Shown: positions 25,451 to 61,196 of the stretch, piece after piece
How the letters are laid out: every line of letters starts with the position of its first letter
Numbering within the stretch: position 1 is the stretch's first letter
Assembly: GCA_965242525.1 (NCBI GenBank)
Contig: OZ251459.1
Location: 1,280,001-1,344,000 of the forward strand
DNA: 64,000 bases
DNA from: an uncultured Candidatus Binatia bacterium
GTDB taxonomy: Bacteria; Desulfobacterota; Binatia; UBA9968; JAJDTQ01
Direction of reading: 5' to 3'
Program-made: the position numbers and the translations under genes
Notes under the pieces: model-generated
Seen by the model: the letters and a program-made list of their open reading frames with translations, nothing else
Database searches by the model: none
What the model was told of the DNA's origin: nothing

Positions 25451-25540
25451 TGGCGGAGAGGGAGGGATTCGAACCCCCGTTACCCGTGGGTAAACCTGAT
25501 TTCGAGTCAGGCGCCTTCAACCGGACTCGGCCACCTCTCC
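25451..25540 (-). tRNA. tRNA-Ser(CGA)
   Basis: GGAGAGG acceptor, anticodon arm CCTGA-CTCGAAA-TCAGG, long variable arm, GGTTCGAATCC T-loop, encoded CCA. Confidence 0.97.
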
Positions 25541-25660: not shown

Positions 25661-26117
25661 TGGATTCCCGCTTTCGCGGGAATGACGGCTCACCTTCCAT
25701 CGCGGCCGCTACCGCACGTGGCGCGTGCATGATGGATTCCCGCCCCCGCTTCCGCGAGGGCATGCTTTGCGGGAATGACGGAGGTGAGACTTTCGGGGGA
25801 ATGACGTCCTCGCCCCTGTCGCTCCCCTTCCCCTCCTGCCTTGCCCACACGAATTCCCGAAGAGCCACCCTGGACAACCCTCCCGTTCGTCCTGAGCGTA
25901 CCGAAGCGGAGTCGAAGGGAGGATTTTGATGAACGTCAAACTTCACATGAACACCCGTTCGTCCTGAGCGTAGCGAAGCGAAGTCGAAGGACGCGCTTTC
26001 CCATAGGGAGATGCGCCTCAAGCCAGGATTGATCAGAGGTTCCCATCCCGTCATTCCCTCTCATCCCGTCATTCCCGCGAAAGCCCACACCGTCATTCCC
26101 GCGAAAGCGGGAATCCA
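25661..26117. repeat. Mixed REP-like cluster: family B (GTCATTCCCGCGAAAGCGGGAATCCA) at 25661, 25733 (expanded), 26050/26068 (partial), 26092; family A at 25883 and 25955
   Basis: Directly visible palindromic copies in both orientations. Confidence 0.9.
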
Positions 26118-29100
26118 CTTTTCAGTAGAATCGCCGCGACACGTCTTGCGGTATCGGTGAAGCGCTGGACTTCCTCCGGCCGCAGCGGGCGGTCGAGGAT
26201 GCCGCGTTCACGGTAGGAAAGCCATTTCTTGAGGACCTGGTAGCCGCCGAGCTTGTAGTTCCAGACCGCGGCGGGGAGGTTGCGCCAGAAGGCGCGGTCG
26301 TTGAGGTGAACGTCGAAGGTGGTCTTGCCGAAGGTGGGGAGCGCAGCGCTCAGGGCGGTGCGTTCGTCCGGGGCGAAGGCGCGTTCGAGGCTCCGGCCTT
26401 GGCCCGGCATGACCGCCCCGCCCGCTCCGACGTGGCCCCAGCCCGCGGTGAGGGCGAAGTCGTCGCCGGTCATGTTGCGCCCGTCCGTGGTGGCGGGAAC
26501 GGCAATGGCGGCGAACTCCGGGCGCAACGCGCCCGTGGTGACGCCGGGGACTGGCGTGTCAGGGTCGAGCAGGGCCGCGAGTTCACGGCCCCGGGCGGCC
26601 GACCGGGCGAGGGCGTCCGCCGCTTCATTGGTCTCCCTGTCCGAGGATGCGGAGCCTTGTTCGGATGCGGGCGGGACGCCCGCGTTCCCAGGAAAGGCGC
26701 TTTCCACGGCTGGCTCATGGCCCTCATAAGCGGGGGACCCCCCTGGGAGCGCGGGCGTCCCGCCCGCAGGGGTGGGGGGCAAGGCAGAGCGAGTGGAATC
26801 CGGGGAGACCTCTGCGGTCCCGGTAGCAGGCCAGCCGGGAAGCGGGATGCGCGGCCACTCCATGCGGAGCGCCCCGGCGTTGGCCTCCCGGTAGGCGGGA
26901 TCGTGAAGCACGGCGAGTACGTGGTGGAACAGGTCCTCGACGCTCAAGCCGAGGCGGTCCAGGTAGCGCCGGGCCGCGGCCGAGAGGTTGGGGCGATTGC
27001 GGGGGCCGCCGGTGTCGCTTCCGATACCGTGCGCCGCGGGAGCGGGCGGCCACGCTCGGAGGTTGCCGTGGGCGCCGTCGTCCTCGCTCCCGATGTTCTC
27101 GTCGTGGAGCCAAGTAGGAAACATCATGGCGCCCCGCTCGATCAAATGCAGGGATGCGAGATGTTCCGTGGAGCAGGCCTGAGGTTCCGACGCATCCTTT
27201 CGTAGATGCTGAGCGGTGGAGAGCCACAGGTTCCCTTCGAACACGTGCGGTTTATAGTCGGCGCGCTTCTCGTCGAGCAGCTTCGTCTCGGCTTCCCAAT
27301 ACAGCCATCGGTTGTCGAACGGACGATAGGCGAAACGAACGAAACCGGCTTCGTCCGGCCCGCCGCGGGCAAGCAGCGCCTCGCGCACCTTGCGGGCGTC
27401 GAAGCGCGCCGTCGTCTTCATCGCCGCCGGGTATCGCCGTGCGATCTCCTCATGGCTCAAGCCCGGATCGAAATAGTCCCCGACCCGCGCTTTCAACAGG
27501 TCGAGATCCACATCGACGAGGAATGGGTCCCGGCTGGTCTTGACCCCAGGGAACGACACCGGGAACAGGTCCGGCAATGCTGGCCAGTCGAACCAATCCT
27601 TGCTCACCGCCATCGGCTTGAACGGCAAACCCAGCCGAAGCGCGGGTTCCAGCGTCGCATAATCGGAATCCATGTCGGGAGCGTCAAGGCTCTCCAACAT
27701 TGCCTGCCGTCTTTCCGCAGCACGCGCCTGATGGAAATCCCGGTACAGGATGCGTCCCCGAGCGGACGCGCCGCTTCCCGATCGTGACAACAATGCGATG
27801 CTGGCCCCGACCTTGATCCCCGGCGATTGTCCTTGCAGGGCAAACACCGTTTCGCTGGTCCGTCCGTCGGGAGCGTATTCCGAGACGATGCGGTCGCCAT
27901 GCAGGTTGTCGATGCGCACCGCGTCGAAGGCTTCCAGGTACCGTTCCCGCATCCCCGTAAACGACAGCCCGTCCAGCCACGAGTAGTTGGAAATGAAGCA
28001 CACCACGCCCCGGCCCGTCTTCTCCGCAATGCGCCGTTCCGCCATGCGGAAGAAGCGCACGTACAGGTCGTTCAACCCCTGTCCTTCCGGTCGCCGCACC
28101 CTCCTGGTCCTTCGGTAGGACTCCGACAACTCCCGCTCCTCGTCCACCGCCATGCCGGCAAAGCCGTTGTAGGGCGGATTGCCCAGGATCACCAGGATGG
28201 GCGTGTCCTGCTTCACCCGCTCCGCACGGTCCCGCTCCTCCTCCAGTTCCGGGAAGGGCAAGGGCTTGATCGTGTGGGGTTCCCACCCGGTCAGGGCGTT
28301 GGTGAGGAAGACGCCGGGCCGTTCATCCCCGTCGTCCTTCAGCGGCGCGTCCAGGTCCTGCATGGTCAGCCCCACCTGAAGGTGAGCCACCACGAAAGGC
28401 GCGGGCATGATCTCGAAGCCGAACACCCGCTCGGTGGCGGCCTGCTTCACCCGCACCCCGGCCAGCGCCCCCAGGCCGCTCCCTTCCAGGTTGACGGCGA
28501 TGCGACGCAAGACCTCCGCCAGATAGGCCCCGGTGCCGCAGCACGGGTCCAGCACATAGACGTTCTCCGCAGCCAGCCCCTCCGGGATGCCCAGGTCGTC
28601 CTTCAGGGCCCGGTCCACCCGCGCCACCATGTAGCGCACCACTTCGGAAGGGGTGTACCAGACCCCCAGTTGCTTGCGCAGTTCGGGGTCGAAGGCTTCG
28701 AGGAAGGGTTCGTAGAAGTAGGGCACGGCCTCGCCTTCGTGGAAGCGGGCGAAGAAGGCCGCGTGGTCCACCCGGTCCAGAGCGGCCGCGGTCCAGTCCA
28801 GGACTTCGACGAGACCCAGCGGTTGCAGGCGGCCGGGGTCGGATAGTTGCTGGAACAACGCTCGGAGCACCGGCGCGCGCAGGTGCCAAACCGCTTCGCG
28901 CCAGTGGAAGGAAGCGGGCGGGACGCCCGCGTTCCCAGGGGGGACGTTGGCGGGGACGTTCGGACTGCCGGCCCGCGCCCACAGCACCCAGGCGGAGAAG
29001 ACGCCGTAGAACAGCGTCTGCACCAGGGTCGAACGGAAGAAGCGCGCGCCTTTCTCTCCCTCGAAACGGACGCCCAACGCCTCTTCCAGCGCCTTGCGCA

Positions 29101-29758
29101 CCGCCTCCAACGAGGGCGCGTCGCCCGCGGCCTCGACACGGGCCAAGCCGTCCCGGGCATAGGAGGCCAGCAGCCACGCCAAGTCCCTGGGTTCGGCCAA
29201 CGCCGCCCGGTGCGACAGCGCCCGGCACAGGTACTCGCCCAAGCCCGCGCCGACTTCGCGGGCGAAAGTGCGCGGCTTCTCCAGCTTGCGCCGGAAGTCG
29301 TCCGCGCCATCCGCCAGCCGGAAGGTTTCGAGCTTCGCCGCACGGCCCGCGGCGTCCTCTCCCACCAACACGAAATCGCGGGTGTTGGTCACAAGCACCA
29401 GACGGTAGCGGTCCCAATAGCGGCTTACCTGGTCCCCCGCCGCGGTAAGCCATGCGTCATCGTCCGCGGTCTTCACTTCCACCACGCCACGCTCCGGCGT
29501 CTGGCCCTCACGCGGTTGGCCCCGCTGGACCTGCTTCGCTACGTAGAAGCCGAAGTCGGGATGGCCCGCGCCCTGGTCAGCCAACTCCTGGACGCAGAAG
29601 ACCTTGGGCTTGAGGGCTGTGCCCACGGCGTTGAGCAGTTGCGCCAGAGGTCCGTAACTCGACCGCTCCCCGGTGGCGCCGCCCGAAGCCCGCACCCGAC
29701 CCAAGTCGGCAAAATAGGTCTCTACCGCCGCGGTCAGGTTCACGTTCGCTGCCGTCAT
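26093..29758 (-). CDS. Type ISP/IIG-like restriction-modification enzyme (nuclease-like N-terminus + N6-adenine MTase + Type_ISP_C-like target recognition domain), no helicase
   Basis: PD...EVK..Q..RY N-terminus, motif I DPCCGTG, motif IV GNPPY, PGVKTSRD, YRPFD, GGYQVLKKWLSYR; ATG 29758 with AAGGAG RBS (the ORF-track 5' extension is spurious). Confidence 0.88.
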   Translation of the reverse strand: MTAANVNLTAAVETYFADLGRVRASGGATGERSSYGPLAQLLNAVGTALKPKVFCVQELADQGAGHPDFGFYVAKQVQRGQPREGQTPERGVVEVKTADDDAWLTAAGDQVSRYWDRYRLVLVTNTRDFVLVGEDAAGRAAKLETFRLADGADDFRRKLEKPRTFAREVGAGLGEYLCRALSHRAALAEPRDLAWLLASYARDGLARVEAAGDAPSLEAVRKALEEALGVRFEGEKGARFFRSTLVQTLFYGVFSAWVLWARAGSPNVPANVPPGNAGVPPASFHWREAVWHLRAPVLRALFQQLSDPGRLQPLGLVEVLDWTAAALDRVDHAAFFARFHEGEAVPYFYEPFLEAFDPELRKQLGVWYTPSEVVRYMVARVDRALKDDLGIPEGLAAENVYVLDPCCGTGAYLAEVLRRIAVNLEGSGLGALAGVRVKQAATERVFGFEIMPAPFVVAHLQVGLTMQDLDAPLKDDGDERPGVFLTNALTGWEPHTIKPLPFPELEEERDRAERVKQDTPILVILGNPPYNGFAGMAVDEERELSESYRRTRRVRRPEGQGLNDLYVRFFRMAERRIAEKTGRGVVCFISNYSWLDGLSFTGMRERYLEAFDAVRIDNLHGDRIVSEYAPDGRTSETVFALQGQSPGIKVGASIALLSRSGSGASARGRILYRDFHQARAAERRQAMLESLDAPDMDSDYATLEPALRLGLPFKPMAVSKDWFDWPALPDLFPVSFPGVKTSRDPFLVDVDLDLLKARVGDYFDPGLSHEEIARRYPAAMKTTARFDARKVREALLARGGPDEAGFVRFAYRPFDNRWLYWEAETKLLDEKRADYKPHVFEGNLWLSTAQHLRKDASEPQACSTEHLASLHLIERGAMMFPTWLHDENIGSEDDGAHGNLRAWPPAPAAHGIGSDTGGPRNRPNLSAAARRYLDRLGLSVEDLFHHVLAVLHDPAYREANAGALRMEWPRIPLPGWPATGTAEVSPDSTRSALPPTPAGGTPALPGGSPAYEGHEPAVESAFPGNAGVPPASEQGSASSDRETNEAADALARSAARGRELAALLDPDTPVPGVTTGALRPEFAAIAVPATTDGRNMTGDDFALTAGWGHVGAGGAVMPGQGRSLERAFAPDERTALSAALPTFGKTTFDVHLNDRAFWRNLPAAVWNYKLGGYQVLKKWLSYRERGILDRPLRPEEVQRFTDTARRVAAILLKSGFPLSRE
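26667..26767. repeat. Inverted doublet of REP-like family C (CCTGGGAR CGCGGGCGTCCCGCCCGC, R = A/G) inside the RM coding sequence
   Basis: Copies at 26667-26692 and 26742-26767 in opposite orientation; third copy 28914-28939; degenerate copy 27038-27058. Confidence 0.85.
28914..28939 (-). repeat. REP-like family C copy inside the RM coding sequence (encodes PGNAGVPPA)
   Basis: Identical 26-mer to 26667-26692. Confidence 0.85.
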
Positions 29759-29848
29759 GGTCTCCTTTGTTGCCGAGCGCGGCCTGACATGCAAGCACTG
29801 CACACGACTGCACCCTCTCCCCAACCCTGTTCCAGAAGGAGAGCGCGC

Positions 29849-30009
29849 CCTTCGACTTCGCTTCGCTACGCTCAGGACGAACGGAGGGTCATTCCCGCGA
29901 AAGCCTGTCCTCGCGGAAGCGGGGCGGGAATCCATTTTCAGAACCCCTGAAGAATCGAGGGAGGGGGCATGAGTGCGTCCTTCGACTTCGCTTCGCTCAG
30001 GATGAACGG
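29849..30009. repeat. REP-like cluster: family A (29849-29884, 29979-30009, minus orientation) and expanded family B (29888-29934)
   Basis: Directly visible; same units as 25661-26117. Confidence 0.9.
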
Positions 30010-57881: not shown

Positions 57882-60800
57882 ATGAACAACCACGTGTCCA
57901 TCCACGGGGCGCTGCAAGACTTGGCCGCTGCGGTGACGGAGAAGACGACGCAACCCACCGCGGGGGAGCCCGAAGACCAGCTCCGCGCCCCGTTCGAAAC
58001 CTTCATGGCGGACGTCGCCGCGGCCTTGGGCCGGCGCGTCACCTGCACCGGCGAGACGCCGCTGCCGGACCGGCTCGGCCGGCCCGACTACGCGGTTCAC
58101 GGCAACGGCCTGCTCGTCGGCTACGTGGAGATCAAGGCCCCGGGCACGGGCGCTGACGCAGCCCGTTTCAAGGGCCGCAACCGCCAACAGTTCCAGCGCT
58201 TTTCGGCGATCCCCAACCTCCTCTACACCGACGGCAACCAATGGGCGCTGTACCGGGGCGGCGAACGGGCGGGAGGCGTGGTCCGGCTTTCGGGGGATGT
58301 GGCCCGTGACGGCCGGCACGCCGCGGCGGTGGAGGACGCTCCCGGCGTCGAGCGCCTGGTGCGGGACTTCCTGTCGTGGGAGCCGCTCCTGCCCCTGGAC
58401 GGCAAGGGCCGCATGGACCTCCGGCGCTTCGCCGACCTGCTGGCCCCCCTGTGCCGGATGCTGCGGGACGACGTGGCCGACGCCCTCGCCGACCCGGCCT
58501 CCCCTCTCGTTCACTTGGCCGGGGACTGGCGGCAACTGCTGTTCCCTCACGCCTCGGACGTCCAGTTCGCCGACGCCTACGCCCAGACCGTCGCCTTCGC
58601 CCTGCTGCTGGGGCGCAGCGAGGGGGCGGACCCGTTGACGCTGGAAGGGGCCCAGGCCGCCCTCGCCGCACAGCACGGCCTGCTCTCCCGCGCCCTGCAA
58701 GTCCTGACCGACCCGGGCGTGCGGGCGGAGATGAGCGCGTCCCTGGACCTGCTGCTGCGGGTCCTCGCAGTCGTGCCGCCCGCGGCGCTGGCCGGACCGC
58801 AGGACCCGTGGCTCTACTTCTACGAAGACTTCCTGGCGGCCTACGACCCCAAGCTGCGCAAGGACGCCGGGGCCTACTACACTCCGGTGGAAGTGGTCCG
58901 CGCTCAGGTGCGTCTGGTGGACGACCTGCTGGTCCATCGCCTGAACAGACGGCTGGGCTTTACGGAACCCGGCGTGGTCACGCTGGATCCGGCTGCAGGC
59001 ACGGGCACGTACCTGCTGGGGGTGGTCGAACACGCCCTGGGGCGGGTGGAAGCGGAACAGGGGACGGGCGCGGTGGCGGGACAAGCCGCGGAGTTGGCCA
59101 ACAACCTCTACGGCTTCGAATTGATGGCGGGGCCGTATGCGGTGAGCGAGTTGCGCGTCAGCCGCGCCTTGCGCGACCGGGGGGCATCGTCGGCCGACGC
59201 GGCGCGGGTCTATCTGACCGACACCCTGGAGAGCCCCCACGCGGAGCCGCCGCAACTGCCGCTGTTCCTCCGGCCCATCTCGGAGCAGCGCCGCAAGGCG
59301 CTTGCAGTGAAGCGTGAGACGCCGGTGCTGGTGTGTATCGGCAACCCGCCCTACGACCGGCACGAGGCCGCCACCCCGCACAACGGGGACCACACCGGCT
59401 CCTGGGTGCGATGGGGCGAGAACGGGGCGCTGCCGGCAAAGGCTTCTTCCTCGCGCGCCGCGGGCGCGGACGCCATCTTCCGGGACTTCCTCGATCCGGT
59501 GGTGGCAGCGGGCCGCGGCGTCCACCTCAAGAACCTGTACAACCTCTACGTCTATTTCTGGCGCTGGGCGCTGTGGAAGGTGTTCGAGCACGACACCGCC
59601 CGCGGGCCGGGCGTGGTGAGCTTCATCACCGCGTCGAGCTACCTCGACGGCGACGCCTTCCGGGGCATGCGCGAACACATGCGGCGGGTGTGCGATGAAG
59701 TGTGGATCCTGGACTTGGGCGGCGAGGGCCGTGGCACGCGCAAGAGCGACAACGTCTTCGCCATCCAGACGCCGGTGGCCATTGCGGTTGCGGCGCGCAC
59801 GGGCAAGGCGAAGGAGGACGAGCCCGCGAAGGTCCGCTACGCGCGCATCGACGGCACGCGCAGACAGAAGCTGGCTGCCCTCGACGCCATCGACGGTTTC
59901 CGGAAGGTGGCTTGGCAGGACTGCCCCAACGAGTGGCAGGCGGCGTTCCGTCCCGCGGGCAAAGGGGATTACTTCGCTTGGCCGCTGCTCACCGACCTGA
60001 TGCCGTGGCAGCATTCGGGCGTCCAGTTGAAACGCACTTGGCCCATCGCGCCGGATGCGGACACGCTGGAACGCCGTTGGCGAGCGCTGCTCGCAGCTTC
60101 GGGCGCGAACCGGACCGCGGCGTTCAGGGAAACACGCGACCGCAAGGTCTCGTCGGAATGCCCCCCGCTGTTATCGGGAGACGAGACGACGCCTATCGCC
60201 AGCCTGGGCCGTGACGCACCGACCCCGCGCATGGAACGCTATGCCTACCGGTCGTTCGACCGGCAGCGCCTCTTTCTGGATACGCGGCTGGCAGATTACC
60301 TGCGCCCCGCGCTGTGGCGCGCCCATGGCGAACGGCAAGTTTACGTGACCAGCCTCCTCAGCCAAGTCCTCGGCAACGGCCCGGCGCTCACCGCCTGTGC
60401 GCTGCTTCCCGACCTTCATCATTTCCCCGGCGGAAGCGGAAAGAGCATCGTTCCTCTCTACCGGACCGCAGACGCTTCGGAGGCCAACCTCCTGCCCGGC
60501 CTACAGGACCTCCTCGGCAAGACCCTTGGGCGCAAGGTCACTCCCGAACACTTCCTGGCCTACGTCTATGGCGTGCTGGCCCACCCGGCCTTTACGGCGC
60601 GGTTTTCCGAGGAACTGGAAACGCGCGATCTGCGGGTCCCGCTCACCAGGGACGCCGGGTTGTTCGAGCGGGTCCGCAGGACGGGCGCCCGCCTGTTGCG
60701 GTTGCACACCTACGGCGAACGCTTCGCCGGCGGGAGGCAACGCGGCCGGGTTCCCCGCGGCGCGGCCCGATGCGTCAGGGCCGTGCCCGGCGACCCTGCC

Positions 60801-61196
60801 AGCTATCCCGAAGCGTTCCGCTACGACGACGCGACACAGACGCTTCACGTGGGCGCGGGCGAGTTCGCGCCAGTCACGCCCGAGGTCCATGGGTTCGAGG
60901 TCTCCGGCCTCAAGGTGGTCCAATCCTGGCTCAAGTACCGCATGAAGGACCGGGGCGGCAAGAAGTCCTCGCCCCTGGACGCCATCCGCCCGGAGCGATG
61001 GACGCCGGGGTTCACCACCGAATTGCTGGAGTTGCTCTGGGTGCTGGAGGCCACCCTCGATAGCTACCCGGAACAGGCGCGCCTGCTCGACGCGGTGGTC
61101 GAAGGCCCCTGCTTCCGGGCCGACGAGTCGCCGCCCGTCCACGAGGCCATGAGGAAGCCGCCGGGCTCGGCCGAGGTTCCGGAGAGGCTGCTCTGA
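57882..61196 (+). CDS. Type ISP/IIG-like restriction-modification enzyme (nuclease-like N-terminus + N6 MTase + Type_ISP_C-like domain)
   Basis: RPDY...YVEIK..Q..RF, GAYYTP, DPAAGTG, GNPPY, YRSFD, SGLKVVQSWLKYR. Confidence 0.88.
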   Translation: MNNHVSIHGALQDLAAAVTEKTTQPTAGEPEDQLRAPFETFMADVAAALGRRVTCTGETPLPDRLGRPDYAVHGNGLLVGYVEIKAPGTGADAARFKGRNRQQFQRFSAIPNLLYTDGNQWALYRGGERAGGVVRLSGDVARDGRHAAAVEDAPGVERLVRDFLSWEPLLPLDGKGRMDLRRFADLLAPLCRMLRDDVADALADPASPLVHLAGDWRQLLFPHASDVQFADAYAQTVAFALLLGRSEGADPLTLEGAQAALAAQHGLLSRALQVLTDPGVRAEMSASLDLLLRVLAVVPPAALAGPQDPWLYFYEDFLAAYDPKLRKDAGAYYTPVEVVRAQVRLVDDLLVHRLNRRLGFTEPGVVTLDPAAGTGTYLLGVVEHALGRVEAEQGTGAVAGQAAELANNLYGFELMAGPYAVSELRVSRALRDRGASSADAARVYLTDTLESPHAEPPQLPLFLRPISEQRRKALAVKRETPVLVCIGNPPYDRHEAATPHNGDHTGSWVRWGENGALPAKASSSRAAGADAIFRDFLDPVVAAGRGVHLKNLYNLYVYFWRWALWKVFEHDTARGPGVVSFITASSYLDGDAFRGMREHMRRVCDEVWILDLGGEGRGTRKSDNVFAIQTPVAIAVAARTGKAKEDEPAKVRYARIDGTRRQKLAALDAIDGFRKVAWQDCPNEWQAAFRPAGKGDYFAWPLLTDLMPWQHSGVQLKRTWPIAPDADTLERRWRALLAASGANRTAAFRETRDRKVSSECPPLLSGDETTPIASLGRDAPTPRMERYAYRSFDRQRLFLDTRLADYLRPALWRAHGERQVYVTSLLSQVLGNGPALTACALLPDLHHFPGGSGKSIVPLYRTADASEANLLPGLQDLLGKTLGRKVTPEHFLAYVYGVLAHPAFTARFSEELETRDLRVPLTRDAGLFERVRRTGARLLRLHTYGERFAGGRQRGRVPRGAARCVRAVPGDPASYPEAFRYDDATQTLHVGAGEFAPVTPEVHGFEVSGLKVVQSWLKYRMKDRGGKKSSPLDAIRPERWTPGFTTELLELLWVLEATLDSYPEQARLLDAVVEGPCFRADESPPVHEAMRKPPGSAEVPERLL

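Follow-up and report, generated by a model that had tools for sequence, protein, structure and literature searches.

Palindromic hairpins of probable transposase origin, lying in frame within loops of a DrdV-like restriction–modification gene

Palindromic DNA that is translated as part of a protein has been described before. Intragenic repetitive extragenic palindromic (REP) sequences of the GTAG/CGTC kind are 20–40 bp hairpins that occur as singles and dimers, are translated in frame and were suggested to sit in flexible loops; a GTAG-19 dimer lies inside an N-6 DNA methylase of Opitutus terrae (Di Nocera, De Gregorio, Rocco 2013, available text of PMC3733652 and its file 3). Rickettsia palindromic elements (RPEs) are longer (105–146 bp) and genus-specific, and in the tested case enzyme activity was retained (available text of the review PMC2229807). 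In REPtrons and TIRtrons, the gene for a REP-associated tyrosine transposase (RAYT, also TnpA-REP) lies between hairpins, and doublets (REPINs, for REP doublets forming hairpins) are described as well (available texts of PMC3733652, PMC5581495 and PMC6006769). Here, we analyse a 64,000-nt stretch, hereafter the window, of an uncultured Candidatus Binatia bacterium (assembly GCA_965242525.1, contig OZ251459.1, positions 1,280,001 to 1,344,000), in which a DrdV-like restriction–modification gene carries three in-frame copies of a 26-bp hairpin unit. We favour, with reasonable confidence, the reading that the three hairpins are RAYT-derived, were tolerated in predicted disordered loops, were filtered for reading frame and were multiplied by duplication and conversion.

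The unit resembles intragenic REPs in that it is sometimes present twice in one gene and often in DNA-handling genes, but it lacks the GTAG tag, and its bias is to anti-phage methylase systems, not repair genes (compared with the available text of PMC3733652, in whose main text the words 'restriction' and 'methyl' are absent). Unlike canonical, mostly extragenic REPs, 21 of its 37 genomic copies are internal to predicted genes, and it is the multicopy state of the host gene that makes most of them intragenic. A sequence-only reading of the window had named RPEs as a precedent, and the resemblance is borne out: in RPEs palindromic DNA adds in-frame peptides to conserved proteins, and here it is predicted to do so; unlike RPEs, however, the unit is 26 bp long, crosses phyla and appears tied to a RAYT clade, whereas the available text of PMC2229807 names no transposase for RPEs. 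As in REPtrons and TIRtrons, an HUH/tyrosine transposase is bracketed by hairpins, with non-autonomous singles and inverted doublets elsewhere; in contrast to the stand-alone RAYTs and extragenic REPs of the available texts, the cognate RAYT here lies in frame inside methylases, and of this system the window contains hairpins only. The host gene shares with DrdV (PDB 7LO5/7LVV) a single-chain layout with a nuclease, a helical connector, an N6 methylase and a recognition domain, and differs from it in sequence (~19% identity), in three lengthened loops and in having nine close paralogous loci in one genome. LlaGI and LlaBIII (PDB 5FFJ, 4XQK), both Type ISP enzymes, have homologous methylase and specificity domains but, unlike them, the host has no helicase/ATPase domain by Pfam scan or in its structure model.

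In-frame REPs are already published, and the hairpins described here are the well-supported trace of a RAYT habit that has received little description. Neither RAYTs nested in methylases nor a defence-gene bias of intragenic repeats was found in a literature search with thin subscription coverage, which included PMC5581495, PMC6006769, PMC12839542 and PMC12306157. The long-standing puzzle of palindromes that code for peptides is here tied to one particular transposase clade. Full-cassette, doublet, single and empty alleles all occur within one enzyme family and allow direct testing of REPIN origin and RAYT maintenance, and three or four loops of DrdV-like enzymes are mapped as tolerant of large inserts. 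No new route to diversifying restriction specificity is revealed.

Hairpin units, host gene and loops

The gene, the hairpin units and the loops that hold them are as follows (window coordinates).

26093..29758, minus strand: DrdV-like Type IIL/IIG restriction–modification gene, 1,221 residues, intact open frame
28914..28939, plus strand: hairpin unit, single, site 1, read as PGNAGVPPA (residues 274–282)
26667..26692, plus strand: hairpin unit, site 3, read as PGNAGVPPA (residues 1023–1031)
26742..26767, minus strand: inverted hairpin unit, site 3, read as AGGTPALPG (residues 998–1006)
26667..26767, no strand assigned: inverted, REPIN-like doublet of two units and a 49-bp spacer
28910..28972, minus strand: site 1 loop between two connector helices (residues 263–283), 21 residues here
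26993..27097, minus strand: site 2 loop, a hairpin tip predicted to be disordered and extended by tandem duplication in place (residues ~888–922)
26630..26830, minus strand: site 3 loop, predicted disordered (residues 977–1043)

The sequence-only reading had placed three in-frame copies of the unit in this gene and had seen none elsewhere in the window. All three lie at the positions it gave, within one open frame; the two plus-strand copies are identical, the inverted copy differs by one mismatch, and there are no other matches in the window at up to four mismatches. The doublet is 101 bp long, with a fold z-score of −6.4. Genome-wide, the unit has 41 copies at up to four mismatches and 37 at up to three, against none in a reversed-genome control. 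In an alignment of 16 hand-picked, related copies, from which the tested structure was itself derived, 98% of cells in the 7-bp stem are paired, eight cells show double-sided change and none of 500 shuffles scored as high. The tetranucleotide GTAG/GTGG is absent from the hairpin foot in all 16, and the conserved tail only resembles the GGGGWSAS terminal inverted repeat motif (PMC3733652). A fourth, degenerate copy proposed at 27038–27058 did not hold up: 72 of 1,135 random GC-rich 100-bp windows score equally well, the segment folds no better than shuffles (z = +0.48), and the same loop in relatives grows by 22–24-codon tandem duplications without the repeat. The local duplication seen at that place, site 2, is real. 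Elsewhere in the genome a related doublet with the same spacer lies between rnpB and a gene that we take to be mraZ; the doublet has thus moved separately from the gene on at least one occasion. When this intergenic doublet (L178:1010–1135) is set against window 26655–26780, its spacer runs the opposite way with respect to the flanks, an arrangement that recombination between the doublet arms would be expected to yield.

The host is predicted to form one chain of a PD-(D/E)xK nuclease, a helical connector, an N6-adenine methylase and, at the C terminus, a target-recognition domain. It matches Pfam Type_ISP_C, N6_Mtase and Eco57I and PADLOC REase_MTase_IIG (E = 3e-83), and DrdV (7LO5) comes first in PDB searches by sequence (E = 2.9e-42) and by fold (E = 1.4e-36). 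In DrdV, the nuclease residues are D64/E79/K81 and the base contacts are N448, Q485, K486, K488, N548, R554, D564, N673, R721, Y764, D803 and K807 (available text of bioRxiv 10.1101/2021.01.06.425610). All 12 contacts map to residues ~527–875 of the host in a hand-read hidden Markov model alignment, approximate at this low identity; therefore none of the three loops holds one. The inserts had been read as lying mostly in the target-recognition region. The doublet is inside the Pfam specificity domain, but the loops (from residues 263, ~888 and 977) contain no aligned contact residue. The ratio of non-synonymous to synonymous substitution rates (dN/dS) is 0.11–0.16 in the core and 0.27 in the C-terminal part. 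As judged from sequence, the enzyme would still methylate and cleave DNA at a target determined by its usual recognition residues.

29471..29560, minus strand: nuclease motif PD...EVK, intact (residues 67–96)
28529..28549, minus strand: DPCCGTG (residues 404–410), presumably the methylase cofactor-binding motif
28169..28180, minus strand: methylase catalytic motif NPPY (residues 527–530), aligned to DrdV N448–Y451
27131..28090, minus strand: segment aligned to the other base contacts of DrdV, mosaic among paralogs and free of repeats (residues 557–876)

The loops stand out both in the structure model and among relatives. An AlphaFold model (predicted template modelling score 0.88; mean predicted local distance difference test score, pLDDT, 88; model residue number plus 21 gives gene numbering) has pLDDT below 50 at residues 890–916 and 983–1035, the sole long low-confidence stretches, and the coil at site 1 scores 60–66. 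A loop-length survey covered 193 family rows (120 protein hits, loci from GTDB genomes and the genome's own paralogs). Site 1 measures 8 residues in 119 of 191 relatives versus 21 in the host, and the measured segment of site 3 is 14 residues in 96 of 187 versus 76; long alleles occur in 64 of 184 rows at site 1 and 62 of 180 at site 3. Because the loops of relatives are mostly empty, the hairpins in the host are insertions. Inserts of at least six residues concentrate at the three loops, rather than spreading along the gene, and a FastTree tree of 186 rows requires a minimum of 18, 9 and 10 changes for long alleles at sites 1, 2 and 3. Eight same-genus genomes have a match; at the loci examined, six are empty, site 3 holds a worn unit in another, and the last has no more than a fragment. 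As had been noticed, the doublet loop has no counterpart in a distant paralog at 57882–61196, which is 32% identical over the shared methylase part; it is also much shorter in most close relatives.

Site 1 has a 15-bp tandem unit whose copy number differs among paralogs. The first part of site 3 (residues ~980–989) is probably an older, worn unit, as relatives' alleles suggest; taken by itself, this segment does not stand above chance. By eye, no clear target-site duplication is visible when the paralogs are aligned at sites 1 and 3, whose loops have changed further after insertion. Site 3 could be measured in 72 of 79 GTDB loci (two mis-anchored), and the 15 lengthened loops each have a length divisible by three, a count biased upward by a search that keeps best matches and so favours intact genes. 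Ten of these 15 contain palindromes, identified by eye, of four unrelated kinds in different phyla: the hairpin unit, family C, a GTAG type and a CCCTCTCCC-type.

Nine loci of the source genome match the host gene at 73–93% identity.

Contig C1 of the source genome (G000:C1), 176102, 919900, 1031106, 1726347, 2011451, 2131126, 2660280 and 3787750, and window 26093–29758: paralog loci

Six are full-length frames with intact nuclease and NPPY motifs, one is without the nuclease, one is internally deleted and one is split, with an insertion sequence (IS)-like insert within the site 1 loop and further frameshifts. The nine contain 19 of the 37 genomic copies of the unit, so most copies were co-inherited by gene duplication and not inserted separately. 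Two intact paralogs, F and H, read the doublet and a single unit, respectively, in another frame, with compensating indels, and five of the six frames of the unit are used in intact genes of this genome. Because the same hairpin DNA is read in other frames by paralogs, the peptides are unlikely to diversify recognition. The frame had been thought to be preserved each time; this is so in intact copies, whereas the doublet loop at site 3 is shifted without compensation in two copies only, both already broken elsewhere. Over residues 600–900 the paralogs are mosaic: contact-equivalent motifs vary independently of the inserts, and contact-equivalent positions differ by ordinary substitution and block exchange. 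Eight of the nine share ~130 bp upstream, including a repeat of another family, B. We considered the gene as a repeat-flanked mobile cassette, since inverted family B copies flank several paralogs, but this is not supported, as copies of family B number 819 across the genome and are absent from most loci of relatives; the 4-kb flanks of 12 loci contain no long target duplication around the paralogs and yield repeat matches only.

RAYT domains nested in methylases

The unit is likely the end hairpin of a clade of RAYT (HUH tyrosine) transposases, as indicated by where such transposases occur. In the same-genus genome G012, a DUF1156 methylase contains an in-frame hairpin–RAYT–hairpin cassette at a site where the source genome has the doublet only, and a similar cassette with a frameshift is present in another same-genus genome, G010. 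Two nested RAYT domains were used as queries against long proteins. Among the 120 proteins listed of 1,294 matched by the first, 100 carry DUF1156; for the second, the figure is 95 of the 120 listed of 1,008, and its listed hosts also include nine with PF01555, two with N6_Mtase/Eco57I and four housekeeping enzymes (hand counts throughout). As these searches were limited to long proteins and seeded from methylases, the nested share of the clade cannot be read from them. Across 185 proteins with 192 RAYT domains, the HxH motif is kept in 191 domains and the Y..NP motif in 185, and unit-type peptides lie beside 179, versus 16 control windows. Nested RAYTs occupy three or more DUF1156 sites.

The link extends to the enzyme family itself. 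Two DrdV-like members, P0150 (56% identical) and P0270, have an in-frame cassette at a loop matching residues ~660–672, and P0150 additionally has unit-type peptides at site 1. RAYT domains are also nested in housekeeping enzymes (P0271, P0389, P0398, P0406 and P0427, with two each in P0271 and P0389), namely IspG, alanyl- and class I tRNA ligases and a cobalamin-binding enzyme. A close inverted pair at C1:3753636–3753673, considered as a possible RAYT locus, proved to be a doublet within a DUF1156 gene.

Proposed origin and spread of the hairpins

These observations fit a sequence of steps. The unit has no stop codon in any of its six frames; therefore, only the length of an insert would decide whether the host frame stays open. 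Units of this type bracket RAYT domains that lie nested in frame in methylases, including the two DrdV-like members. A RAYT acting on single-stranded hairpin DNA may have placed singles and doublets in two or three permissive loops, and we place this event in an ancestor or former host because no RAYT was found in the source genome. Given purifying selection on the core, frame-keeping events alone would survive for as long as the enzyme is useful. Gene duplication and block exchange among the nine paralogs then, in part demonstrably, multiplied the copies, and a long floppy loop could accept further repeats of any family and grow by slippage. Once in place, the hairpins likely persist as near-neutral passengers.

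Several findings weigh against this account. Neither PF01797 nor tblastn with the domains of three nested RAYTs finds a RAYT in the source genome, 99% complete, which leaves the evidence for mobilisation indirect, and among the DrdV-like family members seen none has an entire RAYT at site 1 or site 3. Site 1, which could not be aligned to DrdV, is part of the connector, and in DrdV the connector forms the dimer interface (available text of bioRxiv 10.1101/2021.01.06.425610). The tree of long alleles is blurred by recombination, and searches that favour intact genes inflate the in-frame counts. Plain tolerance alone leaves the defence-gene hosts described below unexplained. Finally, the site 3 hairpins show 0 of 54 differences in all three paralog pairs compared, versus 24–41% at adjacent four-fold sites. 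Conservation above neighbouring silent sites suggests recent spread by conversion or constraint at the DNA level, and weighs against pure neutrality without one of these.

The defence-gene bias is an argument for a proposal that extends the tolerance account and does not exclude it, namely that defence methylase genes are the working niche of the RAYT clade: the transposase would ride unspliced in genes whose loss is costly and which frequently undergo transfer, seed hairpins there and, through nicks at these hairpins, drive gene conversion that spreads filled alleles among paralogs. With 3,140 genes from a home-made caller, internal in-frame copies make up 21 of the unit's 37, 12 of family B's 819 and 4 of family C's 236 (20 copies fall in a 'gene end' class). 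The three families together have 14 genes with such copies (seven paralogs, five DUF1156 methylases, one HmaA-type helicase and one periplasmic binding protein), 13 of which are defence genes. Twelve of the 14 are among 40 methylase-hit genes that make up 4.2% of internal coding DNA, and collapsing the set to host groups leaves 6 of 7 (binomial p ~1e-7 for a share of 5% and 6e-6 for one of 10%, assuming independence). In addition, pglZ and a Type IIG gene contain two copies, both worn. An unbiased 16-mer screen, which low-copy family A escapes, flagged ten genes, of which four are DUF1156 genes, one is a molybdate-binding gene and the other five were judged by eye to be start-site or low-complexity artefacts. 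In this one near-complete genome, the defence bias of in-frame repeats is strong.

The frequency of DUF1156 among the long RAYT-bearing proteins listed, the several DUF1156 sites at which RAYTs are found and the reassortment across paralogs of filled alleles that look younger than their flanks also speak for an active niche. Against it, the bias is shared by families B and C, for which the tests made give no link to a RAYT, and this speaks for tolerance; relatives whose loops are empty show block exchange as well; the RAYT searches were confined to long proteins and methylase-derived queries, and four RAYT hosts are housekeeping enzymes. Moreover, the bias was not replicated in G012, where, of 29 copies belonging to a variant of the unit, 27 failed every internal in-frame test, and 10 of 11 aligned copies lie in one element resembling a miniature inverted-repeat transposable element (MITE). 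We regard a working niche as rather improbable. A wider formulation, to which we likewise give a low probability, is that anti-phage methylase genes are both the main home and the vehicle of the RAYT/hairpin system: RAYTs would sit unspliced in restriction–modification and BREX (bacteriophage exclusion)-related methylases, hairpins and unrelated repeats would converge on a few loops, and nick-promoted conversion would spread filled alleles, in a homing-like manner, through multicopy, cross-phylum families.

The sequence-only reading had proposed REP/REPIN-driven diversification of target recognition. Insertion of REP/REPIN-type hairpins stands, but diversification finds little to support it: the contacts align at or before residue 875, outside all three loops, which are predicted to be disordered. 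That the doublet is within the Type_ISP_C domain, that the hairpin codons are conserved among paralogs and that site 2 starts ~13 residues past the last aligned contact would suit peptides that alter recognition or add a function. However, in the intact paralogs F and H the same DNA yields other peptides, the loops hold anywhere between 0 and more than 130 residues of unrelated sequence, and among paralogs the same recognition-type motifs occur with different inserts, and the reverse. We consider adaptive diversification very improbable. Decay of a redundant or silent gene that accumulates repeats under relaxed selection might be suggested by the three damaged loci of nine (internal deletion; IS-like insertion and frameshifts; in-frame nuclease loss) and by the ~40 methylase-hit genes in the genome, but is highly unlikely given six full-length frames with intact motifs, the low core dN/dS, the clustering of inserts of at least six residues at three loops and the compensation of loop frameshifts in intact copies.

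Neighbouring repeats, relatives and further observations

Other repeats adjoin the host gene.

26090..26117, plus strand: family C palindrome copy giving the last codons of the gene (GFPLSRE) and its stop
25947..26001, plus strand: family B copy downstream of the gene
29838..29892, plus strand: family B copy upstream of the gene, inverted relative to the downstream copy

In the source genome, in-frame repeat arrays are present in five of eight DUF1156 hits (L136, L137, L138, L127 and L120); they belong to family A, B or C, and some sit within others. The sole non-defence gene with an internal repeat (L139, G000:C1:2913122–2914003) encodes a periplasmic solute-binding protein with an in-frame family C copy. 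Of two small GIY-YIG matches (L001 and L002), one has two stops, and L002 is flanked by inverted copies of family C. The MITE-like element of G012 (L151–L174) is ~170 bp long, with short inverted ends and apparent target duplications, and carries a doublet of the RAYT-hairpin variant; at least ten near-identical copies were aligned, one of which adjoins a truncated DrdV-like paralog (L121).

The host's family is found in Latescibacterota, Chloroflexota, Acidobacteriota, Proteobacteria, Binatota and others at 61–79% identity. Tandem arrays of two or three copies of DrdV-like members occur in other genomes (L008, L072, L027 and L080), and a partial copy of the 3' part of the gene lies downstream in L018, L049, L050 and L074. 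The distant paralog at 57882–61196 has a close copy at G000:C1:2860352–2863711, and both are without the hairpin unit. No RNA sequencing run was listed as containing the host gene; three DNA sequencing runs labelled as sponge metagenome contain 0.22–0.28 of its words, and contigs from four sequencing runs were too short and too paralog-mixed for reading alleles. The paralog at G000:C1:2660279–2663125 has lost the whole nuclease domain in frame while retaining its start codon and upstream region, and may be a methylase-only derivative. Directly downstream of the host gene is a tRNA-Ser(CGA) (window 25451–25540), and the gap between dnaX and this tRNA gene in same-genus genomes ranges from about 0.2 to 5 kb.

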